A stretch of 64,000 nt of DNA, taken from NCBI GenBank assembly GCA_964633875.1, contig CAZWKL010000001.1, positions 53,530-117,529 on the forward strand, in the 5' to 3' direction. Shown in pieces: positions 36,216 through 56,362 of this stretch (positions are counted from its first letter, which is position 1; each line of letters starts with the position of its first letter). This stretch comes from an uncultured Pseudomonadales bacterium. GTDB lineage: Bacteria; Patescibacteriota; Microgenomatia; UBA1400; PJMF01. The notes under the pieces were generated by a model, which was not told the DNA's origin, ran no database searches, and was given only the letters and a program-made list of their open reading frames with translations. Position numbers and translations under genes: made by a program.

Positions 36216-36987
36216 AACTTTTCAAGCCCCGGCCCCAAATATATTTCACCAGCCAGCCAAAAAATACAATCCAAGCCAAGAGCGTGAGCGTGTGTGTGAG
36301 CAATTCCTGGGGATTGAGTTTATCAAGAAACAACTGAGTCTGCATAAAGGCAAAATAAGGGAACGGAGTCATAAAAATAATCTTTTGCAGTAGTTCTGGC
36401 AAAATATTGAGAGGGAAGAGTTTGCCGGCAGTGATGTTAATGATCATGAAAAAGAGAAACCTTGGACCCCAAGTGTCCGGACTCCAAAAACCAAAAGCGC
36501 CAAAAAGCAAAGTAATCAGAAAATTCAAAATAATGCCACCCATCATCCAAACCAGAAATAGCAAAAAATTGTTTAAGCCAGGCAAAAAGATGACCGGCTG
36601 AAAAATCAAAAATAGTAGGGAAGTTTCAATGACCAAAAACCCGACATTTTTTAATTTATCGGCAATTTCTTGAGTGGCAAAATAGCCATAAACATTCATT
36701 GGTTTAATTAAAAACTGACTTAACTCACCGGAATAAACAATATTGGCTAAATTATTGAGAGCGGTAGCAATAATCGCGCTTTGCAAAAAAGCGGCCAGAA
36801 AAATATAGGTGATCATTTCTTGCTGATTGTAGGCAAAAGCGCTCTCAGTGGCGCCAAAAATGACCGTCCAGAGGGTCAGCGCCATGATGGTGGAGAGAAA
36901 CTGGCGAAAGCGCCACATCAAGATACTGGCCCGGTAGACCAGACCGTTTTCCCAAGCCACTTTGGTTAAAACCCAATATTTTCGCAT
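36196..36987 (-). CDS. ABC-2-family transporter permease paralog E
   Basis: Same architecture. Loop GELSQFLIKPMN; C-terminus ...KSYDAAGQ. 20-nt overlap with paralog F. Confidence 0.6.
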   Translation of the reverse strand: MRKYWVLTKVAWENGLVYRASILMWRFRQFLSTIMALTLWTVIFGATESAFAYNQQEMITYIFLAAFLQSAIIATALNNLANIVYSGELSQFLIKPMNVYGYFATQEIADKLKNVGFLVIETSLLFLIFQPVIFLPGLNNFLLFLVWMMGGIILNFLITLLFGAFGFWSPDTWGPRFLFFMIINITAGKLFPLNILPELLQKIIFMTPFPYFAFMQTQLFLDKLNPQELLTHTLTLLAWIVFFGWLVKYIWGRGLKSYDAAGQ

Positions 36988-37004
36988 GATGATTACCGCG
37001 CAGC

Positions 37005-37080
37005 CCTTTTTTCACCCTTTTTCACAGATTTTCACGCTTTTTGACCCAGGCTTTCACGCTTTTTTCACAACTTTTCACGC
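37005..37080. repeat. Seven phased (T)nTCAC / GTGA(A)n heptamer repeats at 10-12-bp spacing, lying between the ATPase stop and the permease E start
   Basis: Plus strand: cccTTTTTTCACccTTTTTCACagaTTTTCACgcTTTTTGACccaggcTTTCACgcTTTTTTCACaacTTTTCACgc. TTCAC cores at 37011, 37021, 37031, (37041 TTGAC), 37053, 37064 and 37074. The last copy overlaps the ATPase stop codon (TGA at 37077..37075 on the minus strand). Confidence 0.6.
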
Positions 37081-38079
37081 CGCTTGAGTATCACTGAAGA
37101 CTTCACGGATAATGGCCTCAATTGGCGGCTCTTCAATATTCAAATCTTCTACCGGCAGCTTGTTGAGAATCTTGCCTGCCTGGGTAGTGGCTTGTTTGCG
37201 CGGCACCAGCAAAGTAGCCGTGTAAGCAGAACCGTCTTGGTGGTACTCTTTGATCTCACCAAATTTTTTGAGGTCTTTTTCTTTGACTTCCTGGCTAAAA
37301 ACCAGGGACAGAATTTTGTTGCGGGCGTACTTGTCAATAATATTTTGCAGCTTGCCGTCAAAAACTTTTTTGCCCTCATCAATAATAATGGCCCGCTCAC
37401 ACAGCTCCTTGACGTCGTCCATGTAGTGACTGGTGAGAATAATGGTAGCGCCGAACTCTTGGTTGTACTGCTTGATGAAATCGCGCAGAGTTTTCTGCAT
37501 CACTACGTCCAGGCCAATGGTCGGCTCATCCAGAAACAGCACTTTAGGATTGTGCAGCAGGGCGGCGATCAGTTCGCACTTCATTCTCTGGCCGAGTGAA
37601 AGCTTGCGCACCTGGACATTGAGAATTTTACGCACATCCAGCAAATCCACCAGTTTGTCGAGTGTTTTTTGGAACTCTTGATCAGGAATTTCGTAAATGG
37701 CTTTGTTGAGCAAGAAAGTTTCCATGGCCGGCAGGTCCCACCAGAGTTGATTTTTTTGGCCCATCACCAGCGCAAACTGCTTTTGAAACTCCGGTTTGCG
37801 ATCCCAAGGGTTGTAGCCGAGTACACTAACCGCGCCGCCGGAAGGATAGAGCAAGCCCGAGAGCACTTTCAGGGTAGTAGTTTTGCCGGCGCCGTTTTGG
37901 CCAATAAAGCCCACTACTTCACCTTCAAAAATTTCAAAACTAATGTCATCGACCGCCCTGACGGTTTCGTACTCGCGGTGCCAGAGCGACTTAATCGAAC
38001 CCCAAAGCCCCGGCTCTTTGTGATAAACCTTAAAGTGTTTTTTGAGATTTTTGACAGAAATGATTGTTTTTTTCGACAT
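37075..38079 (-). CDS. ABC transporter ATP-binding protein (COG4586-like) with a C-terminal extension
   Basis: Walker A GQNGAGKTT. Q-loop, signature LSLGQRMKCELIAAL, Walker B LFLDEPTIGLD and the H-loop are present. 334 aa (~90 aa beyond the NBD). It sits in the middle of six permease genes. Confidence 0.85.
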   Translation of the reverse strand: MSKKTIISVKNLKKHFKVYHKEPGLWGSIKSLWHREYETVRAVDDISFEIFEGEVVGFIGQNGAGKTTTLKVLSGLLYPSGGAVSVLGYNPWDRKPEFQKQFALVMGQKNQLWWDLPAMETFLLNKAIYEIPDQEFQKTLDKLVDLLDVRKILNVQVRKLSLGQRMKCELIAALLHNPKVLFLDEPTIGLDVVMQKTLRDFIKQYNQEFGATIILTSHYMDDVKELCERAIIIDEGKKVFDGKLQNIIDKYARNKILSLVFSQEVKEKDLKKFGEIKEYHQDGSAYTATLLVPRKQATTQAGKILNKLPVEDLNIEEPPIEAIIREVFSDTQAA

Positions 38080-38106
38080 AGATATTGTTGTATTGTAACG
38101 TAATTT

Positions 38107-38907
38107 TTACGAGCTTGCTGAGGAATATTGCTTCAAACTGTGTTGCCACACGATTTTGCTGAGAGTGACGCTACCCACCGCTGCCACTGCCGACAAGAGC
38201 AGTAGCCACCAACTACCCCTGCCCAGCAAAAACAAAGTGGGAATATAGCCGAAAAAGGCCATTGGAATCAAGGTAACCGCCACCAGCTGAAAACTGAAGG
38301 GAAACAACGGCTGGGGATATTGGCCAAAATCGCTGATTTTCATGAAAACTTCAAAAACTTGCGAAGCTCTGGTGAGGTAGAAAGCCATGGAAGAATACAA
38401 AGACACAATGCCGTAGCAAACCACGATCCCCAGTACAAACGCCACCAAAAACATTAACAGGCCAGCCGGCGTAATCACCGCTTTTAAAGTAAACATTTGG
38501 TAAAAAAGCAGCAGCGCCAAGCTTATCATCAACACAAATTGCTCCACTTCCGGCTTGGAGTAAAACGACATAAATTGAGAATCAACCGGTTTGGTCAGGT
38601 AAAAATCCAACTTTCCTTGCCGAATATCGAAATAAACAAACTCCCGTGCGCCTTTCATAAAAAGTACAAAACAGCAGGTAAAAATTAGGTGAAAAACCAG
38701 AAAGAGCAAATAGCCCTCTGCTTCCGACCAGCCAGCCACCACAGGAGTAATGGTGTAAGCAATCTTGACCATAAAAAACATCACCACAACGTAGGCGGGA
38801 GCGTAAAGCGACTGCACCACAAAGTTGACCTTGTAAGCCATGATGGCGTTGAGGTGATAAATGAAAAATTTTCGGTAAAGATTGAGGTACTTGAGCGCTT
38901 TTTTCAT
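38107..38907 (-). CDS. ABC-2-family transporter permease paralog D
   Basis: Loop GKLDFYLTKPVD; C-terminus ...LKQYSSASS. 6 predicted TM helices. Confidence 0.6.
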   Translation of the reverse strand: MKKALKYLNLYRKFFIYHLNAIMAYKVNFVVQSLYAPAYVVVMFFMVKIAYTITPVVAGWSEAEGYLLFLVFHLIFTCCFVLFMKGAREFVYFDIRQGKLDFYLTKPVDSQFMSFYSKPEVEQFVLMISLALLLFYQMFTLKAVITPAGLLMFLVAFVLGIVVCYGIVSLYSSMAFYLTRASQVFEVFMKISDFGQYPQPLFPFSFQLVAVTLIPMAFFGYIPTLFLLGRGSWWLLLLSAVAAVGSVTLSKIVWQHSLKQYSSASS

Positions 38908-39702
38908 TTAAATACCCGTGCTTTCATAACTTTTAGAGCCGGCGCGCCAAAGTAAGTCGCGCAAGTAAGTGACGACAACGATCCAGCCGCAAAGAATCCC
39001 CAACCCCGCCAGAGCGGTAGTTTTTGGCAGTTCGTGATTCATCATCTGAATGGGCGTGTAAGCCAGGTGTTGAAAAGGCAGAAAGAAAGAGATCTGCTGA
39101 AACAACTGAGGAAAAAAGCTAATCGGTACCAAAACACCTGACAAAAATCTAATAACGATCAGCAGCGACCAGCGGATAGCAAAAACATCGTTAAACCAGA
39201 AACACAAGCCGGAAATCAAGCTGTACAAACTGAAAGTGAAAATAAAAATTATCGGCATGAAGAGCAAGAGCAAGGCAAAATCACCCAAGCCGGCGTTGAG
39301 TGAGTAGCCCAACAGATACAAAATTGGCAAGATCACCAGGAACTTAAATAAAGTTTCTAAAATTATCGTCCCGCTTTCAAAAGAGAAGTAATGCCAGACG
39401 GGCGAAATGGGTTTGAGCAAAAACTTGGACAAGTAGCCCAGCTTGATATCTTCATCAATGTACCAAGTGTGTAGGTTGGACAAACTGTACAGAATGGCCG
39501 CCAGGAAAAAATAGCGCACGGTTTGGTCTGAGGCCATGATTTGATTGTCACCGCTTTTTTGCACGCCAATCCAAACCAGCGACATCAAAATTACCATGGT
39601 GGCGTACTTGAGTGTCCGCAGCACAAAGTCGAAGCGATACTGCATCGTGTCTTGAATGCTGATTTTGGTGACCAAAAGATACTTTTTCATTTTTTGCGCC
39701 AA
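38908..39702 (-). CDS. ABC-2-family transporter permease paralog C
   Basis: Loop GYLSKFLLKPIS; C-terminus ...SKSYESTGI. Directly abuts paralog D with a 0-nt gap. Confidence 0.6.
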   Translation of the reverse strand: MAQKMKKYLLVTKISIQDTMQYRFDFVLRTLKYATMVILMSLVWIGVQKSGDNQIMASDQTVRYFFLAAILYSLSNLHTWYIDEDIKLGYLSKFLLKPISPVWHYFSFESGTIILETLFKFLVILPILYLLGYSLNAGLGDFALLLLFMPIIFIFTFSLYSLISGLCFWFNDVFAIRWSLLIVIRFLSGVLVPISFFPQLFQQISFFLPFQHLAYTPIQMMNHELPKTTALAGLGILCGWIVVVTYLRDLLWRAGSKSYESTGI

Positions 39703-39723
39703 TCAAGGTACCAAGCAAGGCCT

Positions 39724-40527
39724 TTAATTCCCCACGCTGGTGTATTTTTTGATTGAAATTTTGTAAAACCAACCTGCGAAAATTATAAACCCTAAAGTAA
39801 AAATCAAGAAATACAATATGAGGGCGTAATTTTCTCTGCCCAGCAAAGCCTCGCTCGGCAAACTAGTCACTAAAGCCAAGGGGAAAAGAGTGGTAAAAAC
39901 AAACGAGGCCACGCCAGTGTAAATTGAGCGGGGAAACTGATAAATATCCCTCAGAGAAGGCATAATACTAGTGACGTTATCCAGTCTCTCAAACCAAAAG
40001 GCGATCGTGGCCGTTACAAACCAGCCGGTGTAAAGGAAAATTAAGCTGATCAACACTAAAGCAATGAAAAGGGCGATGTGTACGATAGAAAGCTCGATCT
40101 GCAGGTTTTTAAGCGCCCAAATGAGCACAAATATGCCAATAAGGAGCCTGGGAACGTTGTCATAGCTGTTGCGGTGAACCAATAAGAGGTAAGTGGTGTT
40201 GATTGGCCGGATGAGTAGGTCGGAGAGTTGGCCGGAATAAATCATCCGCCGGAAACGCATCATGTTGGGCGCGAACCAACCCCAAGTGAAAGCATCCAGG
40301 ATAGTGTAGGTGGCCACCACCAAGTAAAGTTCCATCTCGCTCCAGCCGGCGATGTTGTCATTGACACCAATCAACAGCCTGAAGAAAAAGAAATTAAAAG
40401 CTGTCCACATCACCGAGACAAAGCTCCAGAAGAAAAAATCAGTCCGGTAGGTCATCATTTGCATTAGCATCAGCTTGCGAAAGTGCCAAAAAAGTTGCCA
40501 GTATTTTTTCAGTCCCTTGTTTGTCAT
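39724..40527 (-). CDS. ABC-2-family transporter permease paralog B
   Basis: Loop GQLSDLLIRPIN; C-terminus ...KKYTSVGN. Directly abuts paralog A. Confidence 0.6.
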   Translation of the reverse strand: MTNKGLKKYWQLFWHFRKLMLMQMMTYRTDFFFWSFVSVMWTAFNFFFFRLLIGVNDNIAGWSEMELYLVVATYTILDAFTWGWFAPNMMRFRRMIYSGQLSDLLIRPINTTYLLLVHRNSYDNVPRLLIGIFVLIWALKNLQIELSIVHIALFIALVLISLIFLYTGWFVTATIAFWFERLDNVTSIMPSLRDIYQFPRSIYTGVASFVFTTLFPLALVTSLPSEALLGRENYALILYFLIFTLGFIIFAGWFYKISIKKYTSVGN

Positions 40528-41325
40528 TTAGCCTCCCACAGAAGAATACTGTAGCCTGGCTTTTTTCCAGACGAAAGCGGTCAAGGCAAGCATACCTAAA
40601 ATTACTCCGGTCATATAAAGATAATCAAATGGAACTAAACTGTACTGTCCCTGCAAGAGCATAACAGGGACGACAAACAAGTACTTGAAGGGCAGCAGCT
40701 CGACGATGTTACGCATCAGTTCAGGCAGAAAAATCACTGGCATAATGCTGCCGCTGAATAGCGCCACTGTTACCCACTTAAAGTGCTCCAATCCGTTGGA
40801 GCCTTCCAGCCAGAAAGTTAGCAGCACAATCCAGAGGCCAAAAATAAATTGGATCAGGTGGGCGGCGAAAAGGACCAGCAAAAATTGCGGCGCGTTGGCA
40901 AAAAAGTCCGGTAGGCTGAAGCCGGGAATGAAGAAGTTGATAATGAAAACTAGCAGGCCCAGGACGGGCAAAAAGAGCAAGAAAGCAAAAAACTTGCTGG
41001 CCACGCTGGAAGTATAGATTTCCAACAGGTAAGAGAAAGGTCGAATCAGGTAGAAATCGATTTTGCCGTCGCGGATTTGTTCAGCCCGCCAGCCTTCAAA
41101 GTGAACAACAGTCAAGCGGTCAATCACCGCCACCATCACGTAATACTGCATCACCTGGATCAGCGAGTAGTCTTGAATGGTGGCCGCGCCACGGTAGATA
41201 GCCTGCCAGATAAAAATCATGGTGATGTAGGGGACCAAGTCCATCAACAGCCACAAAAAAGTTTCCGCCCTGAACTGCAGAGAGGTCATCAGACTGAGCC
41301 GGAAAAAAGCCAGGTATTTTTTCAT
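40528..41325 (-). CDS. ABC-2-family transporter permease paralog A, the first gene of the operon
   Basis: Loop GKIDFYLIRPFS; C-terminus ...RLQYSSVGG. 6 TM helices. Confidence 0.6.
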   Translation of the reverse strand: MKKYLAFFRLSLMTSLQFRAETFLWLLMDLVPYITMIFIWQAIYRGAATIQDYSLIQVMQYYVMVAVIDRLTVVHFEGWRAEQIRDGKIDFYLIRPFSYLLEIYTSSVASKFFAFLLFLPVLGLLVFIINFFIPGFSLPDFFANAPQFLLVLFAAHLIQFIFGLWIVLLTFWLEGSNGLEHFKWVTVALFSGSIMPVIFLPELMRNIVELLPFKYLFVVPVMLLQGQYSLVPFDYLYMTGVILGMLALTAFVWKKARLQYSSVGG

Positions 41326-41829: not shown

Positions 41830-42225
41830 TTATATATAATTGTGCCGTTTTAAGAAAGCGATAAATGCTCCCAGCAAATCGTAGCCGAGATCGCGAAAAG
41901 TGCCGTATCTGCCTGGTACGAAGGACTGGTGAAACTCATCCGACAAGGCGTAAAGGAAGGTAATGAAAAAAGCGATTTGCCAGATTTGGAAAGGGCCGTG
42001 TTTTTTCTGGGGGATGGTTTGTTGAATACCCCAATGCAGGAGCAGAAAAAGGACAGCATAAACAAAAATATGGGCTAGTTTTTTGAAGGCATAATCGCTC
42101 CAGGAAACAGCCAGTCCGGGCAGATTGGTTTGGGAGGAAAGCAGGAAGATGAAAATGGCCCAGAGTACGGAAGGTCCGAAGGCTTTAGCCCACAGCGCTA
42201 ATGATTTGAACAATTCTTTTTTCAT
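41830..42225 (-). CDS. VanZ-like family membrane protein
   Basis: Motif ALSDEFHQSFVPGRYGTFRDLGYD matches the VanZ signature (DExxQxFxPGR...D). 3-4 TM helices. The ORF track extends to 42264; the ATG at 42225 (MKKELFK) was chosen. Overlaps the 3' end of the upstream gene. Confidence 0.6.
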   Translation of the reverse strand: MKKELFKSLALWAKAFGPSVLWAIFIFLLSSQTNLPGLAVSWSDYAFKKLAHIFVYAVLFLLLHWGIQQTIPQKKHGPFQIWQIAFFITFLYALSDEFHQSFVPGRYGTFRDLGYDLLGAFIAFLKRHNYI

Positions 42226-43354
42226 ACAGTAACAAAACTCCGCTGGAGCTAATTGCGAACCCACCTAGTATAACATTTAGCAAGCTTTTCTGTGAGGGTG
42301 GTTGAGCCGGCGTCTTGGCGTAGATGGCCTTGCCGGTAGCTTGGGTTGGAGCATTGTTTTCAGAGGCGTTCTCAGGGGTGGCGGTGAAGTCAGGCAGTGG
42401 CTGGTTGGGGCTGGGGGTGGAAGTTTGGTGGGTGGTGGAGTTGGTGGGGGCGGTGGGGTTGGTGGAATTGGCGGTGGAACCTGGCTGGTTTTCGGTGGTG
42501 GAGCTGGTAGAGTTTTGGCCGCCAGGCGAGGTTTGCTGTGGGTAGATGGTTTCACCCTTGGTACAGCCAGAGTAACTGGCGGTGGCAACAGTCTCGCCGG
42601 TGGGGGTTTCGATAAAGACTGAATCGCCGGTGTTGTTGAGCATGGCCTGCTGCCAGGAGGTTTTCTGGGTTTGGCCTGGGGGGATGGCGCCTGAGAGGCC
42701 ACGGAAGTTGTTTTGTTCATCCCGGATTTTCCAGTTTTCCAGGTTGAGGGTGGTAGGGCCGTGATTTTTGATGATGATCCATTCCGGCTGGTTTTCCAAA
42801 GGGCAGGGGTGGATTTCTTCGATGGTGAGTTGAGGCGGAGCGGAACTGGGTGGCGGACTGGTGGATGGTGAAGGTGTGGGGGTGGTGGCAGCGGTGGGAG
42901 GAGGTGTGGGTGTGGGGAGCAGGTTGGGACTGCCGGGAGTGGGGTCGGTGAGGAGGAAGACATTTTCGTTGGTGGCGCGGCGGCTCCAGCTTTTGCCGGG
43001 GGTGGAAGTTTCGTACTGCATGGCGTCGATTTGTTCGCCACTGGCATTGTAAAGCACCACGCCGTCCGCGCCATTATTCAGCTTCATGGAAGATAGCTCA
43101 AAAACTGCGTAGCCACCGGCTTCCAGCGTCAGGTTGCCAATGGTGTAAATCAGAGCCGGCGAAGCCAGTTGGTCGTAGAGCGTCCAGCCAGTGAGATTCA
43201 CCGGCTCAATATCGGGATTGTGCAGCTCCACCCACTCCGGCCCGTCTTGGGGCTGGGGAAAAACTTCGGAGATGACGGGGGCAGCGGAGGCCGAGATGGG
43301 GAGAAGCAAGAAAAAGCACAATGCAATCGGAAAGATGAGCAACAAATGCGTCAT
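42185..43354 (-). CDS. Secreted protein with two lamin-tail domains (LTD), a Pro/Thr linker, an S/T/N-rich low-complexity region and a C-terminal hydrophobic anchor
   Basis: Signal peptide (LLIFPIALCFFLLLPISASA). LTD1 is ISEVFPQP..EWVELHNP..VNLTGWTLYD...NNGADGVVLYNASGEQIDAMQY. LTD2 is IEEIHPCP..EWIIIKNHG..LNLENWKIRD...NNTGDSVFIETPTGETV. The linker is PTPTPPPTAATTPTPSPSTSPPPSS. C-terminus ...LLNVILGGFAISSSGVLLLYEKRIV. Confidence 0.6.
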   Translation of the reverse strand: MTHLLLIFPIALCFFLLLPISASAAPVISEVFPQPQDGPEWVELHNPDIEPVNLTGWTLYDQLASPALIYTIGNLTLEAGGYAVFELSSMKLNNGADGVVLYNASGEQIDAMQYETSTPGKSWSRRATNENVFLLTDPTPGSPNLLPTPTPPPTAATTPTPSPSTSPPPSSAPPQLTIEEIHPCPLENQPEWIIIKNHGPTTLNLENWKIRDEQNNFRGLSGAIPPGQTQKTSWQQAMLNNTGDSVFIETPTGETVATASYSGCTKGETIYPQQTSPGGQNSTSSTTENQPGSTANSTNPTAPTNSTTHQTSTPSPNQPLPDFTATPENASENNAPTQATGKAIYAKTPAQPPSQKSLLNVILGGFAISSSGVLLLYEKRIVQIISAVG

Positions 43355-43407: not shown

Positions 43408-45612
43408 CTAATGATGTCCCAAGATGTTCACAGAGTCTGAAGAGTCGGGATATTGAAGATTGAGATCATAAAGCAGGTTATACATCGTTACTTGAGCACG
43501 GAAAATGGGAGGGTAATCGGCGGAGCCGACAAAAAACTCTTCTTTAAATACCCCAGGCTCCACTTCTTTTTTGCTATAGATCATGGGTTTTATTTCAGCG
43601 TTGAAATATTGCAAAACCTCATCCCAATCTTCGCGGGCAATATCCCGCCGCATGTGCCAACTATCAAGCATTAAATAAACCAATTGGGTGAAGAAATAAT
43701 GAGGATCTTCTGTTGCTGGCCTGGAAAGCAAACCTTTCTCAAGCATGATTTGATTTAATGCCGGCATTTTTTCTTGATCATGTAAAAGTCCGGCAAAGTC
43801 ATAGAAGAGACGATTAACTAAATTATTGTTGAAATGATCTAAAATTTGCTCCCATTTCTCCGGCGGCACATTAGGCCAGACACCACCATCTCTCCAGAAC
43901 ATCTTTTCAAAGATATGATAAGCAGCATTCATATCATTTCCAGGATGAGTAGTCAGAATTCCGGCTTCAAGGAGCATGTTGGCGAAAGTTTCCAGTGACT
44001 GAGTAACCGAGGCCGGCGCATATGGTGGATCAATAGTAATATCTCTGGCAAATTCCTGATCGTCAACCAGATCTGTAAGTGGGGCAATTTCTCTGATAGC
44101 ACACGTTTTGTAGATATGCCAAGCTAGATTACTTCGGTCGTTTGCATTGAAATCTCCGGCGATATCAGAAAGGCGCTTAGTTACTAGAATGCTGGTGATT
44201 GCTTGAAACAAGCTGTTGTATTCATGTGGACCTTCCGTCCGCAGCACTTCCGAGTAAGCTACTCTCAGTTGTTTGGCTTCATCCTCATATTTCACTAATT
44301 TACTCTGCAAATCAAACAAAAGCTTCAATTCTTCGGTGTTATTTTCATTTAGCGCTTGTTTGAGTAGGAATGGTAAAAATTTCGGATTTCTTATTTGTTG
44401 AGAAACAAGTTTTTTTACAAAGCCTATAAAATTTTGACTGGCTTCTTCTCGCATGTGCTCGACAGTGCGCTGATAGGCAAACTCAGGATTGGTGGGGATT
44501 TCAGAAACCTTGTGCCAGGCATCTGTGTAATTAAGCAATTGCCACTCGTGCATTGGGTCAGTGATACCGATTTCATTAAGTGCGTCAGGGTTGCCTTCGG
44601 CAAATGGCTGCAGCCGGTTGGCATACCGCTCAAGATAAGTTGCTGCTAATTGTCTCATTTCTTCCCTGGTTTGCTGCACTCTCTCACGTTTGCTGGTGGC
44701 TTCCTTATAAGCCCGAGCTGCTTCAGGAAAATTTTGCTCAAACAAGATTGTCAAAGCAGTATTGGGATATCGGTCAAAGGCAGCCGCTCGTTCACCTGGT
44801 TCCATATCCATCATGCCGGTGGTTGGTTGCTCACGAAATCTGATTAAGTCGTAGTGTCTGATACCTTCATCGGGCAAGGCTTCATTGATTCCTCCGGGAA
44901 GATTGACGCCTATCTCAGCCAGTCTTTCTTTAATAATTAAAGCAGAGCCTCCTGGAGCCAGAGCAGAAACAGCTTTAATTTCTACTCCCATCGCTCTAGC
45001 GCCGGTGACGCCGACTTTTTGAATAATTGAAACATTGACATCCATATTGGAGATATCTTTAGGTTCAGAAAAGCCACCGATGTTTTCGGCGCTGATTTGC
45101 AGGGTTGAAACCAGAGTAATAAAGTCAAGATTGGCTGCATTTGCTAGCAAATGCAGTTTGTCGACAAAACCAGCAAAATAATCTTCAAAACTTTCTCCTT
45201 CGCGCTTTTCCGCTTCGTAGCAATTTCTGGCTAGAATCTTGAGGTGAATCGCTGACCCTTCAATCACTTCTCCTTGAGGAGTTTCTTTTCTTCTTGCCCA
45301 GGTACTGAGAGGGAAGAGGTGTTCTTTACCTTGGAAATGCTTTAGCCACAGTTGGTGTAGGGTAGGAGCTGAAACTTCGTAAGCACCACTACCCTCCGGC
45401 GGATAAGGACGTTTGAGAGCGGCTGCGGCGCCAGCCCTGAACTCCGGATTTCCCACCAGCCTGGTGACAGGATAACCGGCAACTGCAGTACCGACAAGGG
45501 CTGCCGCTGCTTTGAGAAAAGTTCTGCGAGACACTCCTGGTTTTTGAGTTTCTTCCTCAGGCTTAGGTCCCCGATCTTTTTTTCTGGAGCGCTTGGTTTC
45601 TGTTGGCATCAC
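43408..45612 (-). CDS. Hypothetical 734-aa exported or membrane-anchored protein with a twin-arginine-type signal (SRRTFLKAAAALVGTAVAG)
   Basis: Basic N-terminus followed by a canonical S-R-R-x-F-L-K motif plus a hydrophobic h-region. No recognisable catalytic motifs. 1-nt overlap with the upstream GT-C gene. Confidence 0.4.
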   Translation of the reverse strand: MMPTETKRSRKKDRGPKPEEETQKPGVSRRTFLKAAAALVGTAVAGYPVTRLVGNPEFRAGAAAALKRPYPPEGSGAYEVSAPTLHQLWLKHFQGKEHLFPLSTWARRKETPQGEVIEGSAIHLKILARNCYEAEKREGESFEDYFAGFVDKLHLLANAANLDFITLVSTLQISAENIGGFSEPKDISNMDVNVSIIQKVGVTGARAMGVEIKAVSALAPGGSALIIKERLAEIGVNLPGGINEALPDEGIRHYDLIRFREQPTTGMMDMEPGERAAAFDRYPNTALTILFEQNFPEAARAYKEATSKRERVQQTREEMRQLAATYLERYANRLQPFAEGNPDALNEIGITDPMHEWQLLNYTDAWHKVSEIPTNPEFAYQRTVEHMREEASQNFIGFVKKLVSQQIRNPKFLPFLLKQALNENNTEELKLLFDLQSKLVKYEDEAKQLRVAYSEVLRTEGPHEYNSLFQAITSILVTKRLSDIAGDFNANDRSNLAWHIYKTCAIREIAPLTDLVDDQEFARDITIDPPYAPASVTQSLETFANMLLEAGILTTHPGNDMNAAYHIFEKMFWRDGGVWPNVPPEKWEQILDHFNNNLVNRLFYDFAGLLHDQEKMPALNQIMLEKGLLSRPATEDPHYFFTQLVYLMLDSWHMRRDIAREDWDEVLQYFNAEIKPMIYSKKEVEPGVFKEEFFVGSADYPPIFRAQVTMYNLLYDLNLQYPDSSDSVNILGHH

Positions 45613-48600
45613 TATTCATGGTATGAGAATTTGGGGTTAAAAGCAATGTTGATTAGTAGAATTGCTGTGGTGGTTAAAATCAGGAATCCAGCAAATTCAA
45701 GTAATTGGGGCCAGAAAAAAACGATTACATGATAAGAACCCTCAGGAAGAACCCATGCATTGGCCCAACCATTATAGATGACATGATCTAAAAGGTGTAG
45801 ATTTGACAAATTGATAGCTATCCAGCCATTTTCATAAGTTTGTGATAGGGCAACCAGGCCGATATCTGGATTGTCGACCTTAAAACCATATTGATATGTA
45901 CCAACTTTCCATAAATTACTGATTTTGGCATGATTTATAATTTTCTCGGATTCACTTTGTGGTTTGATCACAATCCTACTTATAAAATCGAGCGGAACAG
46001 GATAAATTTCAATGTTTTCAATAATATTTTCACTGATTTCAGAGCCAAATGATCGGTTTTCCCAACTCAAATAATAGCCCTCATTTTCCAAATAAGGCCA
46101 TGGCAAAATTCCATAACTTATTTCTCGAGAGCTGTCGGGAATTAGTTCTTCAAGATCCGAGCGTCCGGCAGCGATGTTTTGCAGGTTTAGTTTAATTGTT
46201 CTACCGGAGATATTCTCAATTTGCCACCTCATTAGATACGAGCTGTGTTGATTTAGATCGAAAAGGTCAGCGCCATCGCAGGCAACACCCAAATCAACAC
46301 TTTGATAAACAACATTATCTGCAACTATTTTTTTAATTGATTCGTTTTTTCGCATTAAATCACAATTTGACACACTATTGGGGTTGGCGAATTCAGGACT
46401 GTAAGGTATGGAGCTGATCTGAATAACTAATTCAGAGCTAGGCTTCAAATCAACTGTGTGTTCTTGAGTCATAGAATCCCATGACTCAGTTGATAAAGAA
46501 ATTGATGCGACTCTATTAGAGTCGATAAACCTCTGGTCTTCTTCTTCTTCTATCTCAGCAAAATTAAAGGCAGATATTACTACGGGTCTATTTATTTGAA
46601 GATTAGCTTCGGTTTGAATAGTTTGTCCTTGTTGGATCTCAATTTGTTTTTCACCTATTTCTATAATAACGTTTTGAAACTCTAGTGGTATTGGTAAAGC
46701 GACGGAGGGGAGGGATGGCAGAGCAAATTGATCAGAGCCAGTTTTTATAATGATCTGTTGATTAAAATCGACTGTCACTAAACCATTTGTAAAATTGAGA
46801 CTAATCTGAGCCATATGTTCTTCTCCTTGTGCTAATGGCGGAAGAATTAATTTTGCATTATCAGTTAGTTCAGCTATGTTTTCCTTGATAATAAGCTGAT
46901 TATGTCCATATTCAACAAAAGGCGTTTGATCTTTTAGGTAATCTGCAAATGGGTACATTATTGGCTGTTTATCTATAAATAGATTGTGGTTACCAGACAC
47001 ATATGGGCCGTTGCCTTGATAGATAGGATCTCGCTTGCTGTAAGTGACATCGCCAATTGCTAAAACTAATGAGTCGGGAACGTAGACGAAAGATTTGCTT
47101 CCCACCAAGAGCCTAACATCATAAATTGATAGAAAATTCTCCTGCCAAGCAGGTTTCAAGCCTATTTCAGCTAATAAGTTTTTAATTTCTGGTTTTTTAA
47201 CTGTATCAGTGTTGTCATTAGGATTAATAATACTTTCATCTAAAAGTAGATAGGAGATATCAAATTTTTCTAGCGTTTCTATAAAGGTTTGTGGGTCATT
47301 TCCATATAAGGCTGCAGAAAGTTCTTTGTAGAGAGTTTCATTATGAGGATTCCAGCGGTCAAAGTCTCTGACTGTCATTGGTTGATTCATGCCAAACCAG
47401 ATAAATCCAGCTCCTTCGTAACCCCAATCATAAAATTCCCAACCTATAGGAGTTTGCAATGGTAAGTTAATTATTCTGGCTTGATCGGGCTGTGTTTCCA
47501 GCCAGTCATAAAGGGAAAAATAAGGTTGAGGAATATCATTTAATAATTTTTTGTTGATAAGCTGACCTTGCAATAGGGGTAAACCATACAAGCCCAAAAC
47601 AAAACTAACAAGGAATACTAAGGAAATGTTAATTGCCAAAGATACTTTAATAATTTTTCTAATAAATTTCATAACTTCATTCATAAAAACTGAAAAATAA
47701 ACTGAGGTTGAGAACATAAGTAAAAGAGAAAACTTAGTGAAAGGAGTCCTCAGTCCTTCTCTAAAGATAGCAACATTATCTCTTAACCAACCGAAAATAT
47801 AATTAAAAGGCGGATTCATATTCATCAGCATAAATATGGATAAGAGTATGATTGGCAGCAAAGCTGTTTCCACCTTCTTTTTTTTAAGCACACTGACTGT
47901 CAACCCAATCAAAGAAAAAGCGAAAATTGCATATCCAATTGAAATTATCCAAATATTGCCAATGTGTTCTTTCCACTGCGGTAGTAAATCGCCGAATCTA
48001 CCATCATTTTTGAGATCTAGCCAGTTGAAAAGGAAATTTCGGAAAATAGCTACATCTTGAATTTTTCCGAAATTAGCGTTGTGTAAGAATGATTCTGGAG
48101 AAAAAAGTCGGTTAATGTGTGAATTAGCAGGAATTTTAGCCGCATCTGTTAATAAAAAGTACAGATTTGGCAGTAACCAAAAACTATTGGCTGCTAAGGT
48201 TGCACCAATAACAAACAGGCTTTTTTTGAAGAAATTTCTTTTTCGTTCTTCCAGATTTAAAACTATTAAAAACAAAATCAGAGCTCCGAAGTAAGCGAAC
48301 CAAAGTTGAGAGGCATAAGCCATTGGAGTGGAGAAGAGGGAAATAACAAAAAATGCAAGTAAATATTTTGGATTTTCTGAATATAAAGACTTTATTGTGA
48401 ACAAGAAGAGCCAGCCCAAAACTGAGTATTGAACCGCGAACATCTCAAACACTACGTAAAAATGTTGGACAGTTCCAAGATTGAAAATATAAACTAAAGC
48501 TCCTAAAAATGCCGAAGCATGAATAATGTATCCTGATTTTTCTTCAAAAATCCCATTTTTAATAAAATAATAAATTCCCAACGGACCCATAATAAAACAG

Positions 48601-48926
48601 AGATAAACAAACCCAAGTCTGAGAAAATGGTCTGGTAAGACAAATGATCCGAGCCATAGAGTAATAATTCTGGGTAAGTCACTCATATGCGAGTGAGCAG
48701 CTACTGCACCCAAACCCTGATCTTGTCTCCAAACTCCAAAAATAACATTAGAAATTTGTGAGGGGAAATTAAATTCCGGATGCAATGTATCCCAGCCAGT
48801 CAGCCATTTTCCCGGAACGTAGTTTGTGATAATAATCAGTAAAGTAATCAGGAAAATTGATGCTGGCCAAAAAAAATTATTAAACCACTTTTTAGTGGGG
48901 ATATGGGCAGCAATATTTTTCATCAT
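45612..48926 (-). CDS. Large polytopic membrane glycosyltransferase-like protein (GT-C fold; YfhO/AftD/PMT-like architecture). ~13 N-terminal TM helices, a ~550-aa extracytoplasmic domain and a C-terminal TM helix.
   Basis: 1104 aa. N-terminal 500 aa are strongly hydrophobic with short loops. The C-terminal soluble region ends with the TM helix FAGFLILTTTAILLINIAF. Immediately downstream of, and overlapping (4 nt), a GT2 polyprenyl-phosphate sugar synthase-like gene. This is the classic donor-synthase/GT-C pairing. Confidence 0.5.
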   Translation of the reverse strand: MMKNIAAHIPTKKWFNNFFWPASIFLITLLIIITNYVPGKWLTGWDTLHPEFNFPSQISNVIFGVWRQDQGLGAVAAHSHMSDLPRIITLWLGSFVLPDHFLRLGFVYLCFIMGPLGIYYFIKNGIFEEKSGYIIHASAFLGALVYIFNLGTVQHFYVVFEMFAVQYSVLGWLFLFTIKSLYSENPKYLLAFFVISLFSTPMAYASQLWFAYFGALILFLIVLNLEERKRNFFKKSLFVIGATLAANSFWLLPNLYFLLTDAAKIPANSHINRLFSPESFLHNANFGKIQDVAIFRNFLFNWLDLKNDGRFGDLLPQWKEHIGNIWIISIGYAIFAFSLIGLTVSVLKKKKVETALLPIILLSIFMLMNMNPPFNYIFGWLRDNVAIFREGLRTPFTKFSLLLMFSTSVYFSVFMNEVMKFIRKIIKVSLAINISLVFLVSFVLGLYGLPLLQGQLINKKLLNDIPQPYFSLYDWLETQPDQARIINLPLQTPIGWEFYDWGYEGAGFIWFGMNQPMTVRDFDRWNPHNETLYKELSAALYGNDPQTFIETLEKFDISYLLLDESIINPNDNTDTVKKPEIKNLLAEIGLKPAWQENFLSIYDVRLLVGSKSFVYVPDSLVLAIGDVTYSKRDPIYQGNGPYVSGNHNLFIDKQPIMYPFADYLKDQTPFVEYGHNQLIIKENIAELTDNAKLILPPLAQGEEHMAQISLNFTNGLVTVDFNQQIIIKTGSDQFALPSLPSVALPIPLEFQNVIIEIGEKQIEIQQGQTIQTEANLQINRPVVISAFNFAEIEEEEDQRFIDSNRVASISLSTESWDSMTQEHTVDLKPSSELVIQISSIPYSPEFANPNSVSNCDLMRKNESIKKIVADNVVYQSVDLGVACDGADLFDLNQHSSYLMRWQIENISGRTIKLNLQNIAAGRSDLEELIPDSSREISYGILPWPYLENEGYYLSWENRSFGSEISENIIENIEIYPVPLDFISRIVIKPQSESEKIINHAKISNLWKVGTYQYGFKVDNPDIGLVALSQTYENGWIAINLSNLHLLDHVIYNGWANAWVLPEGSYHVIVFFWPQLLEFAGFLILTTTAILLINIAFNPKFSYHE

Positions 48927-49702
48927 CTATTCAAAAGAGCCAGTCTAATAACTGAACTAGCTCTAGAAAGCTGCAAAGAGAGGTCTTGTTTAAACAGTTG
49001 CCACTGCAAGTTAAGGGTCTCTGCTACAGCTTTTAAAATTACCTTGGTACTATTACCGGTAGGCTGACCAATAAATCTTTGGTAATGTTGAACACCAACC
49101 TGAGTAATATTAAAGCGCATTCTATAGGTTTTGAGAAGCATCTCTGTAGAGATCATGGCCCCATCAGAGAAAAGTGGTTCAATTTCAACCAAAACTCTCT
49201 TGTGGATAAGTTTAAAGGCACAATCAATGTCTTTAACTTCCTTGGGGAAATTAAGCATAATTCGATTCCAAACTTTTAAAGCAGAGGTAAGTAGATGCCG
49301 TTTCCAACCTTCAGCTCTTTCTAAACGGTATCCAATGACAAGATCACTTTCATCAACGTACTCTATAAAGTGGATAATTTCTGAAATGTCGAATTGTAAG
49401 TCACTGTCAGTGAAGAAAACCCATTCATATTGAGCTTCCTTAAAACCTCTTTTCAGAGCTCCGCCGTAACCTCGGTTTGTTTGAGTCACTACTCTTACTT
49501 TTGGATATTTCTTAGCTAGGCGCTTACTAATTTGCAGAGTTGAGTCGGTGCTTCCATCGTTTATGATGACTATTTCGAATTTTTTAGCTACTTTTGAAGC
49601 AACCGCCAGAGCTTGCTTGACAACTTCCTCAATATTTCCTGCTTCGTTATAAGCCGGAAAGAAAATCGATAATTCTGATAATCGCTTGAGTTTAGTTTTC
49701 AT
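48923..49702 (-). CDS. Family-2 glycosyltransferase, polyprenyl-phosphate (dolichol-P-mannose synthase-like) type
   Basis: LSIFFPAYNEAGNIEEVV...FEIVIINDGSTDSTLQI...NRGYGGALKRGF...VFFTDSDLQFD. DxD and GT-A fold motifs typical of DPM1/GtrB/ArnC-like enzymes. 259 aa. Confidence 0.8.
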   Translation of the reverse strand: MKTKLKRLSELSIFFPAYNEAGNIEEVVKQALAVASKVAKKFEIVIINDGSTDSTLQISKRLAKKYPKVRVVTQTNRGYGGALKRGFKEAQYEWVFFTDSDLQFDISEIIHFIEYVDESDLVIGYRLERAEGWKRHLLTSALKVWNRIMLNFPKEVKDIDCAFKLIHKRVLVEIEPLFSDGAMISTEMLLKTYRMRFNITQVGVQHYQRFIGQPTGNSTKVILKAVAETLNLQWQLFKQDLSLQLSRASSVIRLALLNR

Positions 49703-49926
49703 CTGATATTTTTTTCCTCAAGGCATTTTTTATATAAGTCTTGAACAGGATACCAGACTGCAGCACCATCTTCTTCTGTGATGCTATAACGTGAACTTTG
49801 GGCACACTGAAACTTGGCTTCATTCTCAATTTCTTTTTCTTTTAATTCAGAAAATCTAATGATAGCGAAAACAATTGCTCCTACAAGAGAAAATATGCCA
49901 ATTAAGATTAGTAGACCTTGTTTCAT
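49699..49926 (-). CDS. Small single-TM protein (75 aa) overlapping the start of the GT2 gene
   Basis: MKQGLLILIGIFSLVGAIVFAIIRFSELKEKEIENEAKFQ... One TM helix and two Cys. 4-nt overlap suggests translational coupling to the GT2 gene. Confidence 0.35.
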   Translation of the reverse strand: MKQGLLILIGIFSLVGAIVFAIIRFSELKEKEIENEAKFQCAQSSRYSITEEDGAAVWYPVQDLYKKCLEEKNIR

Positions 49927-50022
49927 ATTACTTTCTCATGAATAAAGCTACTTATTAAAAATGCAAGTATGAGGTTTTCAAAAAGGCCAAGGCAATTTTT
50001 GCCTTGGCCTTTTTAGTTGCGC

Positions 50023-51294
50023 TTAAGGAGTTGACACCGTTTCGGCACGAATCAATCTAAATTGATACCTTGGTGTTCCATCTTCGTGGTTGCCCCATTG
50101 CATTCTTTCCACAGTCACTACAGTAACCTTTTCGCAGTTTTCTGGTAAGTCGCACTGACCAATGAAACCTGTTTCAGGGACTCCTTGACCAAGTCTGGCT
50201 CGATAATGATTTATCAGTCTTTGTTCTGTTTCTTGAACGTGATCAGGTTCACCGTTCCAAATTCGACCCCAACCTTGGAATCCAGCCTCAACGTGAACTG
50301 AATTGGTGGGAAATCTATATACATTATCAGTTCTGTTAATGATAAGCACTAATACGGCTCGTCCTGGTCCGCCCTCGACTCGCCCAATTCCCGGCAGTTC
50401 AGCATATTCTCCAGTATGAACCATCCAGCTATACATAGGAACCTGAGGACCAGACTCATGATTGGAATACTGGTTGTAATCATTAGTTCCATCCGTGTAT
50501 CCTGCCAATGGTGGAAAACCATTTAACTCGGCATTTAAGTAAGCTTGGAAATCTGCTGCGTTATCAGGAATTGGATCAAGCACTTTCGGTTCAATATCAC
50601 TCAATCTTAGTTCTGAATCAGGAGTGAAACCTTCTGCAGCAGAGAGATCAATTTCAGAAACGTTGCTGTCAGAGTCCATTAATTGAAACATGCTGTTTTC
50701 ACCCTCTGCCGCGCTAGCATAAGGCTGATCCCAATATGAAGCTTCTCCTGATGGTGCGGAAATAGTTTCGGTAGTTGTTACAGTAGTTGTTGAAACAACA
50801 TCTAATGAATTCTCTTCTATTTTTTCAGTACTTGGTGTTTCTGCAACAACTTCTTCTTCTATATCCGTATTTTCTAAAGATTCTAACTCAGCCCGATCTG
50901 TGTCAGCGCCAGTCACTTCTTCAGCTTCTTTGATTACATCAGTTTCTACCTCCTCTAATATTTCCAGATCAACCTGAGGGGTGGCTTGCGCCTCAGCCTC
51001 AATAGCGGCAACTCGTTCCTCTACGGAACCAAGCCGTTCGTTCAATTGATTCAAATTGGTCTCAAGCCCTGCTTCCACTCTATCCGCAGCTTGTCTGGCA
51101 GCCTCATCTGCTATAAGAGCCGAGTTTTGATCACTACTGTCACGACAGGCAACGGTAGTGGCAATGACAGTTAAACCTAGAGCACCGGCGGCGACATTTT
51201 TTCCATCCAACCCTCTGTTTTCTGGTTTTTCTGGGAAACGTTGTGACATGATTTTTTCCTTATAATTACTAACATTCAATGTGATTGGATCCAA
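50023..51294 (-). CDS. Secreted or possibly lipidated hypothetical protein with a coiled-coil, an acidic low-complexity region and a C-terminal globular domain
   Basis: N-terminal signal (VAAGALGLTVIATTVAC, with a possible lipobox TVAC). Coiled-coil (AARQAADRVEAGLETNLNQLNERLGSVEERVAAIEAE). D/E-rich segment. No family recognised. Confidence 0.4.
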   Translation of the reverse strand: MDPITLNVSNYKEKIMSQRFPEKPENRGLDGKNVAAGALGLTVIATTVACRDSSDQNSALIADEAARQAADRVEAGLETNLNQLNERLGSVEERVAAIEAEAQATPQVDLEILEEVETDVIKEAEEVTGADTDRAELESLENTDIEEEVVAETPSTEKIEENSLDVVSTTTVTTTETISAPSGEASYWDQPYASAAEGENSMFQLMDSDSNVSEIDLSAAEGFTPDSELRLSDIEPKVLDPIPDNAADFQAYLNAELNGFPPLAGYTDGTNDYNQYSNHESGPQVPMYSWMVHTGEYAELPGIGRVEGGPGRAVLVLIINRTDNVYRFPTNSVHVEAGFQGWGRIWNGEPDHVQETEQRLINHYRARLGQGVPETGFIGQCDLPENCEKVTVVTVERMQWGNHEDGTPRYQFRLIRAETVSTP

Positions 51295-55330: not shown

Positions 55331-56362
55331 TTGCAAAATAAGGACATTACTATGGTGCCAAAAAACCGACCACAAGAAAGTGAATTAATTTTATATCGCA
55401 CTGCTGAGGGTGATATTACCGTAGATGTACTTTTTAAAGATGAAACAGTTTGGTTAACTCAAAAAAGAATGGCAGAACTATTTGATGTTGATAGGTCTGT
55501 AATTACAAAGCATCTAAAAAATATTTTTAGTGAAGGTGAGCTGAGTCAAAAAGCAGTTAGTGCAATTTTTGCACATACTGCTTCAGATGGTAAGACATAT
55601 AATACCAATTTCTACAACTTGGACGCAATCATCTCTCTTGGCTACAGGGTTAACTCCTCCCGAGCTACCCAATTTCGTATTTGGGCCACAAAAACACTAC
55701 GCAACTACATTATTAAAGGTTTTGCCATTGATGAAGCCAGGCTAAAAAATGGCTCACACTTTGGTAAAGACTACTTTGCCGAGTTACTCGAGAAAATTAG
55801 AGAAATTCGCGCCAGTGAGCGACGATTTTACCAAAAAATTACCGATTTGTACGCACAGGCAAGCATAGATTATGACCCAAAAGCGAAAATAACTCGAGAG
55901 TTTTTTGCCTCTGTTCAAAACAAACTGCACTGGGCAATTACGGGCAACACGGCAGCAGAGATTATTGCTGATCGAGCTGATGCTAATCAACCAAATATGG
56001 GTTTAAATACCTGGAAGAATGCGCCTAAGGGGAAAATTTTAAAAAGCGATACTCAGGTGGCAAAAAATTATTTATCACCAGATGAGCTGCAGAAGCTAAA
56101 TAGGATCGTTTCTATGTATTTAGATTATGCCGAATTGCAAGCAGAGCGACAGGTACCAATGAAAATGATGGATTGGATTGAACGATTAGATGCGTTTTTG
56201 CAGTTTAACGAATATGAGATACTAGATAATCCTGGTGAAGTTTCTACTGTGGTAGCAAAAAAATTAGCTAGTGATGAATATGATGAGTTTAGAGTTAAAC
56301 AAGATGAAGAATTTGAATCAGATTTTGATCAAGCTGTAAAGAAATTTTTGAAAAAAGCGTAG
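55331..56362 (+). CDS. RhuM-family protein (virulence-associated / DNA-binding, often found in defence and restriction-modification islands)
   Basis: N-terminal ELILYRTAEGDITVDVLFKDETVWLTQKRMAELFDVDRSVITKHLKNIFSEGEL...NFYNLDAIISLGYRVNSSRATQFRIWATKTLRNYIIKGFAIDEARLKNG matches the conserved RhuM core (xLYQTEDGxxxIxVxxxxETVWLxQxQMAELF...HxKNIxxEGEL...YNLDxIISVGYRVxSxRGTQFRxWAT). Confidence 0.8.
   Translation: MQNKDITMVPKNRPQESELILYRTAEGDITVDVLFKDETVWLTQKRMAELFDVDRSVITKHLKNIFSEGELSQKAVSAIFAHTASDGKTYNTNFYNLDAIISLGYRVNSSRATQFRIWATKTLRNYIIKGFAIDEARLKNGSHFGKDYFAELLEKIREIRASERRFYQKITDLYAQASIDYDPKAKITREFFASVQNKLHWAITGNTAAEIIADRADANQPNMGLNTWKNAPKGKILKSDTQVAKNYLSPDELQKLNRIVSMYLDYAELQAERQVPMKMMDWIERLDAFLQFNEYEILDNPGEVSTVVAKKLASDEYDEFRVKQDEEFESDFDQAVKKFLKKA

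Follow-up and report, generated by a model that had tools for sequence, protein, structure and literature searches.

The window analysed here, a 64,000-nucleotide (nt) stretch of contig CAZWKL010000001.1 (assembly GCA_964633875.1, positions 53,530 to 117,529 of the forward strand), carries three tightly coupled minus-strand genes that encode a 75-amino-acid (aa) membrane protein, a 259-aa family 2 glycosyltransferase (GT2) and a 1104-aa membrane protein which, on its predicted structure, is an AftD-like glycosyltransferase of the GT-C fold. An initial annotation, made from the sequence alone, had proposed three genes overlapping by 4 nt each, and the three open reading frames (ORFs) and their overlaps were read directly at the positions listed below. 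The stop codon of the 75-aa gene and the start codon of the GT2 gene share an ATGA at 49699..49702 (ATCAGATGAAAACT), and the GT2 stop and the start of the 1104-aa gene share another at 48923..48926 (AATAGATGATGAAA); at this second junction two in-frame ATG codons stand in tandem, leaving an overlap of either 4 nt or 1 nt. Each of the three genes has homologues in other genomes at 30-72% identity, which indicates that all three are real. The principal features are as follows.

49979..50015, minus strand: intrinsic-terminator-like hairpin at the end of an upstream 423-aa gene (RNA fold, sequence)
49699..49926, minus strand: gene of the 75-aa single-pass membrane protein (ORF, hydropathy)
48923..49702, minus strand: gene of the 259-aa GT2 (GT-A fold) glycosyltransferase (PF00535, PDB matches)
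49394..49408, minus strand: DSDLQ, the DXD metal/nucleotide-sugar motif of the GT2 (aa 99-103; aligns with DADLQ of Pyrococcus furiosus DPMS)
45612..48926, minus strand: whole gene of the 1104-aa predicted AftD-like GT-C membrane glycosyltransferase (AlphaFold, Foldseek)
47571..48926, minus strand: its N-terminal membrane domain, aa 1-452, with 11 transmembrane (TM) helices (helix list of the model)
48771..48797, minus strand: GWDTLHPEF (aa 44-52), first extracytoplasmic loop, directly after TM1 (conservation)
45729..47570, minus strand: its predicted extracytoplasmic domain, aa 453-1066, about 614 aa (secondary structure, Foldseek)
45612..45728, minus strand: its C-terminal TM anchor (helix aa 1073-1096), short cytoplasmic tail and stop codon (hydropathy, model)

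The hairpin has a 17-bp stem with a T-run behind it and stands some 50 nt upstream of the 75-aa gene; as RNA it folds with -26.1 kcal/mol (z = -5.39), a stability equalled by none of 200 shuffled sequences. Given this terminator-like element between the 423-aa and 75-aa genes, we regard the 75-aa gene as the opening of a separate transcription unit.

Fold, conservation and family of the 1104-aa protein

The AlphaFold2 model of the 1104-aa protein, built with an 83-sequence alignment, reached a predicted local distance difference test (pLDDT) score of 92.6 and a predicted template modelling (pTM) score of 0.91. When compared to the PDB with Foldseek, the first match was AftD of Mycobacterium abscessus (6w98; E-value 1e-18) in an alignment spanning both proteins, followed by PglB (5e-6) and the yeast and human STT3 proteins (~1e-5), with a probability of 1.00 for AftD, PglB and STT3 alike. 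Judged by this model, the protein has the GT-C fold and is neither a transporter nor a peptidase, in line with the initial annotation, which had named AftD, YfhO and PMT as its likely kin. The likeness to AftD stands, whereas membership of the YfhO, PMT and ArnT families was rejected, as none of 44 family members gave the corresponding Pfam match.

The overall plan that had been read from the sequence, an N-terminal TM domain, a domain outside the membrane and a terminal TM anchor, was likewise recovered, although with 11 rather than ~13 N-terminal TM helices and ~614 rather than ~550 aa outside. Eleven helices fall within the 8-13 of GT-C superfamily membrane domains, and their arrangement in the model resembles that of solved GT-C enzymes. 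Short loops rich in lysine and arginine (aa 226-235, 345-349 and 420-427) lie on the predicted cytoplasmic side, which fits the proposed topology with the N-terminus inside. In the model, the outside domain comprises a mixed alpha/beta GT-C soluble part up to about aa 640 and then beta-sandwich modules, for which Foldseek returned the carbohydrate-binding module (CBM)-type beta-sandwiches of Vip3/Cry domains, SGBP-B and Xyn30D. The protein ends 8 residues past its single C-terminal TM helix. It is not "unusually large", as had been suggested; AftD has about 1400 aa, and members of the present family range from 870 to 1277 aa.

At the level of sequence, the relationship to AftD is faint. The PF11847 (GT-C_AftD) profile matched aa 324-568 below threshold (E 8.7e-4, 17.8 bits against a cut-off of 26), phmmer gave a marginal match to the C-terminal region of AftD, and 6 of the 44 family members matched PF11847 at E<=0.01 (best 3.3e-6). 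By these profile scores, the 1104-aa protein is not a formal member of the Pfam AftD family. A family profile compared to the PDB did align the last beta-sandwich with AftD residues 1155-1255 (E 2.1e-4; motif NGW..GWVLP.G); a database search with a 101-aa AftD fragment taken from a PDB alignment returned three short fragments only.

In GT-C enzymes, the catalytic or metal-binding acid sits in the first outside loop, after TM1 (PMC8035078). The initial annotation had pointed to this loop as the place to look for an acidic motif, and we found there the near-invariant GWD46TLH49PE51F, that is, a modified form, D-x-x-H-x-E, in which D46, H49 and E51 show at least 90% conservation over 83 sequences and do not vary in a 16-sequence alignment. 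D46 is thus a candidate for the catalytic or metal-binding acid of the fold. All 36 invariant residues of the family (including R86, E161, E278, E390, R393, K398, R520, D523, R524, N529, E530, C855 and C883) map to predicted outward loops, outer helix ends or the outside domain, the last of which holds the invariant cysteine pair C855 and C883.

The family has more than 786 relatives, all unnamed or labelled "hypothetical", with 267 loci in species-representative genomes. Its hosts are Microgenomates-type Patescibacteria (Levy-, Woese-, Chisholm-, Roizman-, Davies- and Shapirobacteria, and WWE3). Across the family, conservation extends over the N-terminal 640 aa and the last 100 aa of the GT-C protein; the beta-sandwich region in the middle is variable, which fits a variable recognition of acceptors. 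We did note that many contigs with a member of the family and its typical neighbours are titled uncultured Gammaproteobacteria, Pseudomonadales, Bacteroidota, Clostridia or Nanoarchaeota (L008-L011, L016, L023, L024 and others); these titles look like placeholder or mis-assigned labels of metagenome-assembled genomes and not true hosts.

The GT2 enzyme, the small membrane protein and their linkage

The GT2 carries the motifs FPAYNE (aa 14-19), INDGSTD (aa 46-52) and DSDLQ (aa 99-103), all as initially annotated, and matches Pfam PF00535 (Glycos_transf_2) at 7.7e-30. Its best PDB relatives are the DPMS of P. furiosus (5mlz, 1.8e-16), ArnC (~1e-13) and the GtrB homologue sll0501 (8e-11), so that with its GT-A catalytic domain, its DxD(LQ) motif and characterised DPMS, ArnC and GtrB enzymes as closest members, the earlier assignment to the DPM1/GtrB/ArnC type is borne out. 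From this sequence evidence, we infer that it is a polyprenyl-phosphate sugar synthase. No NCBIfam equivalog cut-off was reached, all 21 matches lying far below (ArnC at 60.6 bits against 529; PpgS at 36 against 370, E 4e-9), and we have therefore assigned no sugar specificity. Towards the C-terminus, DPMS has four TM helices, and ArnC and GtrB two each. The GT2 here shares their catalytic domain but has no TM helix, as no hydrophobic segment exceeded the hydropathy threshold, and hence no C-terminal TM anchor. In this it resembles the TM-less subtype (human DPM1, PpgS and GacI) that is paired with a separate membrane protein (10.1101/180810; PMC8035078).

By hydropathy, the 75-aa protein contains a single strongly hydrophobic stretch at aa 5-23, behind which comes a small domain. 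An AlphaFold model of the protein (pLDDT 93.8) shows a helix at 2-44, a hairpin at 46-60 and a helix at 62-71. While a word-indexed search found two close relatives only, an exhaustive HMMER search recovered 76 cluster representatives at E<=1e-3, nearly all of 62-140 aa. The family motif is NEAxxQC41AQSSRY...VxY59P60...Y65xxC68L, with C41 invariant and P60, Y65 and C68 near-invariant; 57 of 63 members have exactly two cysteines, and in the model C41 and C68 could form a disulfide. Net charge is greater towards the N-terminal side (+1.75 vs +0.54), and the folded part probably faces outward. A fold search with the model gave no significant solved structure (best E 0.47), and Pfam and NCBIfam gave no match except a sub-threshold one to DUF5392.

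The initial annotation had offered a GtrA-like or flippase-associated subunit for this protein. GtrA-type flippases have about 120 aa and 3-4 TM helices. On size, TM count (one) and the lack of a Pfam GtrA match, we rejected such a role; the protein instead has an apparently extracytoplasmic two-cysteine domain and is found beside the GT-C gene even where no GT2 adjoins it. There was no match to DUF2304, the family of GacJ and Rv3632, either.

The recurrence of the cassette was counted over 81 distinct loci from species-representative genomes, 24 of which have a full-length GT-C alignment. The counts were as follows.

GT2 ortholog (51-63% identity) beside the GT-C gene: 10 of 81 loci; 8 of the 24 full-length loci
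Small protein beside the GT-C gene: 21 of 81 loci; 9 of the 24 full-length loci
GT2 and small protein both beside the GT-C gene: 5 of 81 loci

No GT2 ortholog lies within about 6 kb of the GT-C gene in the remaining 71 loci. The GT2/GT-C pairing is thus real but lineage-restricted, and most members of the GT-C family would depend on another donor, or on a donor synthase whose gene lies elsewhere. The small gene, located with tblastn and a hidden Markov model built from the matches, stands on the same strand and upstream of the GT-C gene in 20 of its 21 independent species loci and immediately downstream in the other (L075). It directly adjoins the GT-C gene, with gaps of 9-121 nt and no GT2 nearby, in 16 of the 21; elsewhere a GT2, a GT2 plus a DUF4185-like gene, or another secreted protein lies between. 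Starting instead from the small-protein representatives, a GT2 and/or GT-C relative adjoins on every contig with enough flank. Four gene orders found in this way illustrate the range.

L086: small, GT2, GT-C (a close metagenomic relative with the exact three-gene order)
L087: small, GT-C
L093 and L094: two tandem small copies, then GT-C
L091: small, a different GT2, and a convergent GT-C-like C-terminus

We therefore take the 75-aa protein to be a genuine small membrane protein, linked to the GT-C family and not recognised before. As a separate observation, the tandem two-cysteine paralogues before the GT-C gene in L093 (5001-5646) and L094 (3397-4042) measure 140 aa and 73 aa, and the first of each pair has a long proline-rich N-terminal extension.

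Neighbouring genes and genomic context

Three further genes flank the cassette in the window, and DUF4185-like genes were located in related loci.

50023..51294, minus strand: 423-aa upstream protein (its family lies upstream of small/GT-C genes in 11 loci)
43408..45612, minus strand: 734-aa protein with a twin-arginine (TAT) signal (TAT signal match, junction read)
42185..43354, minus strand: 389-aa lamin-tail-domain (LTD) protein, two genes downstream of the GT-C gene
L003:4827-5960 (minus), L012:3752-5068 (plus) and L029:4823-5947 (plus): DUF4185-like genes

DUF4185 corresponds to the GH183 family of endo-D-arabinanases (PMC10115798). Secreted DUF4185/GH43-like proteins are encoded in or beside the GT2/GT-C cassette in 6 of the 81 loci (L003, L012, L018, L029, L032 and L083), with the GT2 and a DUF4185-like gene in the same cassette in four of them (L003, L012, L029 and L032). 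Their DUF4185 matches (37.5, 35.8 and 21.2 bits) stay below the Pfam cut-off of 39.5, and one of the proteins has a TAT signal.

A second protein family, of 371 aa, is encoded just upstream of the small/GT-C genes in 23 loci (e.g., L004:4789-5904). Neither this nor the 423-aa family, both of anchored or secreted proteins, has a Pfam or PDB match. Both match the same stretch of L093, while BLASTP between the two found nothing; they may share a domain.

Downstream, the 734-aa gene is start/stop-coupled to the stop codon of the GT-C gene (TAGTGATG) and probably shares its operon. Searches of Pfam, NCBIfam, the PDB and the 81 related loci gave no relative of its product, the tblastn matches all being in copies of the same genome. 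As the gene is not conserved beside the homologues elsewhere, we leave it out of the core cassette; the protein is apparently an organism-specific orphan. The LTD protein has a signal peptide, two lamin-tail domains, long Pro/Thr/Ser-rich linkers (which account for the unusually high GC of its gene, 0.57) and a TM anchor at its C-terminus. In 9 of the 81 loci a homologue is encoded downstream of the GT-C gene, always within the lineage that also shares the VanZ, HU and ABC-2 synteny. The LTD protein is a candidate glycoprotein substrate, but inherited synteny would account for the pattern equally well.

The three cassette genes have a GC content at third codon positions (GC3) of 0.31, 0.33 and 0.24, as against 0.40-0.66 for most other genes in the window, membrane-protein genes among them (ABC-2 0.57-0.64, FtsX 0.63, rpoB/C 0.47-0.50). 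Weak expression may be the cause, or the genes may have come laterally from a relative of lower GC. The wider window is otherwise ordinary chromosomal backbone, with rpoB/rpoC-sized genes, ribosomal proteins, a SecA-like gene, a sortase, YceG, FtsX/FtsE and RF-1, and an Rfam scan of it found no RNA elements. Two other regions of the window stood out. At 35388..41325 (minus strand), six consecutive ABC2_membrane_6 permease genes stand together with one gene for an ABC ATPase, an unusually repetitive transporter array of which part is conserved in the syntenic locus L003. At 55331..56362 (plus strand) lies a gene for a RhuM-family 'virulence protein' (E 3.9e-110), the sole plus-strand gene found among the minus-strand housekeeping genes there, which may be a mobile or defence-related insertion.

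Proposed pathway, alternatives and known systems

Our preferred reading, to which we give a probability of roughly two in three, is that the operon attaches a sugar to a membrane lipid within the cell and then, outside, passes it on to a polymer of the cell surface. Taken from the gene structure, folds, family relationships, conservation patterns and gene linkage described above, the enzymatic steps, topology, sugar and acceptor, and physical interactions would be as follows. On the cytoplasmic face, the TM-less GT2 would move one sugar from a nucleotide sugar to polyprenyl phosphate, giving a polyprenyl-monophospho-sugar, which a flippase from outside the operon would take to the outer leaflet. 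There, the 1104-aa enzyme would hand the sugar on to a molecule outside the cytoplasm; a glycopolymer of the cell envelope, held by the CBM-like beta-sandwich modules, is the most likely acceptor. The putative active site would lie between the outward loops (D46/H49/E51, R86, E161, E278, E390/R393/K398) and the soluble GT-C domain (R520/D523/R524, N529/E530). The 75-aa protein would be a single-pass accessory whose Cys-stapled mini-domain, most likely outside, associates with the GT-C enzyme. The use of a polyprenyl-phosphate-linked donor outside is suggested by the adjacent DPMS-type GT2 and by the outside-loop residues, and the coupling of donor synthase and transferase by gene order. Extracytoplasmic glycosylation by GT-A and GT-C enzymes, including systems in which a TM-less GT-A works with a small membrane partner, is well described (PMC8035078), and such a system was shown for GacI/GacJ/GacL (10.1101/180810).

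Several observations weigh against this pathway. A profile of the TM domain (16 sequences, aa 1-470) matched no solved GT-C enzyme among PDB sequences, so that the membrane domain is related to AftD at the level of fold only, and the first-loop motif is D-x-x-H-x-E and not the classical DxD. The GT2 adjoins the GT-C gene in 12% of loci only; no GtrA- or Wzx-type flippase gene is found in the operon, and no GtrA-type gene near it. The only two signs of an outward orientation of the small protein are a modest charge bias and the Cys pair. Finally, the DUF4185/GH183-like neighbours hint at a furanose polymer, the usual donor for which is not made by a GT2.

One alternative is that the GT2 and the GT-C enzyme are mere neighbours, the latter drawing on another lipid donor (e.g., a polyprenyl-phospho-pentofuranose) and the former serving another pathway. 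AftD itself uses decaprenyl-phospho-arabinose, which is not GT2-made (AftD paper), and to this can be added the 71 loci that lack a nearby GT2 ortholog and the six with DUF4185/GH183-like genes beside the GT-C gene. We nevertheless consider it unlikely, as the GT2, where present, is a true ortholog placed immediately upstream, often with overlapping start and stop codons and in several species, and a GT2 with a GT-C partner is the rule for the DPMS/ArnC/GtrB type (PMC8035078); the DUF4185 matches, moreover, are sub-threshold, and in four of the six loci the gene shares its cassette with the GT2. A different acceptor is also conceivable, with the 1104-aa enzyme acting as a PMT- or oligosaccharyltransferase (OST)-like protein glycosyltransferase that decorates surface proteins, such as the LTD neighbour, with the GT2-made lipid-linked sugar. 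PglB and STT3 are indeed the next structural matches behind AftD, and the LTD protein with its PT-rich linkers lies two genes downstream, with homologues in nine loci. The full-length match, however, is to the polysaccharide-acting AftD (1e-18, against ~1e-5 for the OSTs), the outside domain has several CBM-like beta-sandwiches as AftD does, and the restriction of the LTD neighbour to the closest lineage, with VanZ, HU and ABC-2, is explained by inherited synteny, all of which makes protein glycosylation an improbable role.

Concerning one component only, the 75-aa protein may serve the GT2 as a tether or activator, in the manner of GacJ for GacI, Rv3632 for PpgS or DPM3 for human DPM1. Small membrane activators have precedent among TM-less GT-A enzymes (10.1101/180810; PMC8035078), the GT2 lacks a TM helix of its own, and a 4-nt overlap joins the small gene to the GT2 start in the present locus, in L086 and, where the GT2 is of another type, in L091/L092. 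This arrangement, while it deserves consideration, strikes us as rather unlikely: 16 of the 21 small genes adjoin a GT-C gene with no GT2 nearby, the two conserved cysteines and the N-terminal charge suggest a folded part outside and away from a cytoplasmic GT2, and neither family nor fold is common to the 75-aa protein and GacJ (DUF2304, three TM helices), with no Pfam match above threshold. That the 1104-aa protein has kept the GT-C fold without catalysis, as a scaffold or an anchor that binds glycans, might be read from its sub-threshold Pfam score and the missing classical DxD, but is scarcely plausible given the clustering of conserved polar and charged residues (D46, H49, E51, R86, E161, E278, E390, R393, K398, R520, D523 and R524) in the outward loops where GT-C active sites lie.

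A bolder extension of the preferred pathway is that the AftD-like GT-C family, as yet unannotated and lineage-wide in the Microgenomates-type Patescibacteria, works as an obligate heterodimer with the new 75-80-aa disulfide-stapled single-pass subunit and builds or decorates a furanose-containing, arabinan-like wall polymer, such a polymer being suggested by the secreted DUF4185/GH183-like hydrolases that recur within these cassettes. We regard this as improbable, and the arabinan-like chemistry as a speculative but testable hint. If true, Patescibacteria would have an envelope chemistry that has until now counted as a hallmark of the Mycobacteriales; to our knowledge, there is almost no experimental knowledge of cell envelopes in the candidate phyla radiation. 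As the mechanism of a GT-A lipid-sugar synthase with a GT-C transferase is textbook, the value of these results lies in annotation and leads and not in a new principle. Through them, a large family of "hypothetical proteins" of about 1000 aa gains a structure-based putative function, and one of its subfamilies a probable donor synthase; the small partner, the DUF4185-like hydrolases and the two anchored secreted protein families may serve as leads toward the acceptor polymer.

AftD, the alpha-1,3-arabinofuranosyltransferase D of the Mycobacteriales (PDB 6w98/6wbx; PF11847), is the best full-length structural match. It consists of TM1-11, soluble domains and TM12, followed by TM13-16, a four-helix bundle that binds acyl carrier protein (ACP), and its residues K39, D41, E251, K361 and D474 are essential by experiment (AftD paper). 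The 1104-aa protein as modelled shares the 11 N-terminal TM helices, the soluble GT-C domain, the large outside region with its beta-sandwich/CBM modules and the re-entry TM helix and, like AftD (D41), has a conserved Asp (D46) after TM1. It differs in having ~10% identity, about 300 fewer residues and no ACP-binding bundle, in a host that is a Patescibacteria genome without known arabinogalactan, and in its adjacent donor synthase, a GT2, which does not make AftD's decaprenyl-phospho-arabinose.

The arrangement and logic of the genes are closer to the CsbB/YfhO/GtcA and GtlA/GtlB systems of Firmicutes, which glycosylate teichoic acids (PMC5836110, PMC7389260, PMC8035078). There, too, a DPMS/GtrB-type GT2 makes a C55-P-sugar, which an adjacent large GT-C enzyme with an extracellular domain hands to a wall polymer in a monoderm cell. 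Unlike that system, the 1104-aa protein has no Pfam YfhO or PMT_2 match, the GT2 lacks the C-terminal TM helices of CsbB-type enzymes, the small partner is unrelated to GtcA, and no GtrA-type flippase gene lies in or near the operon. The combination of a TM-less GT-A enzyme, a small membrane protein and an outside-acting GT-C enzyme has its counterparts in GacI/GacJ/GacK/GacL of Streptococcus pyogenes and PpgS/Rv3632/Rv3779 of M. tuberculosis (10.1101/180810). In those systems the small proteins, GacJ and Rv3632, belong to DUF2304, have three TM helices and bind the cytoplasmic GT-A (10.1101/180810), whereas the 75-aa protein has one TM helix and probably an extracytoplasmic two-cysteine domain, and tracks the GT-C gene more than the GT2; it may be their analogue in function. 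The locus most likely encodes a known kind of system, here with an unannotated enzyme family and a previously unnoticed small partner.

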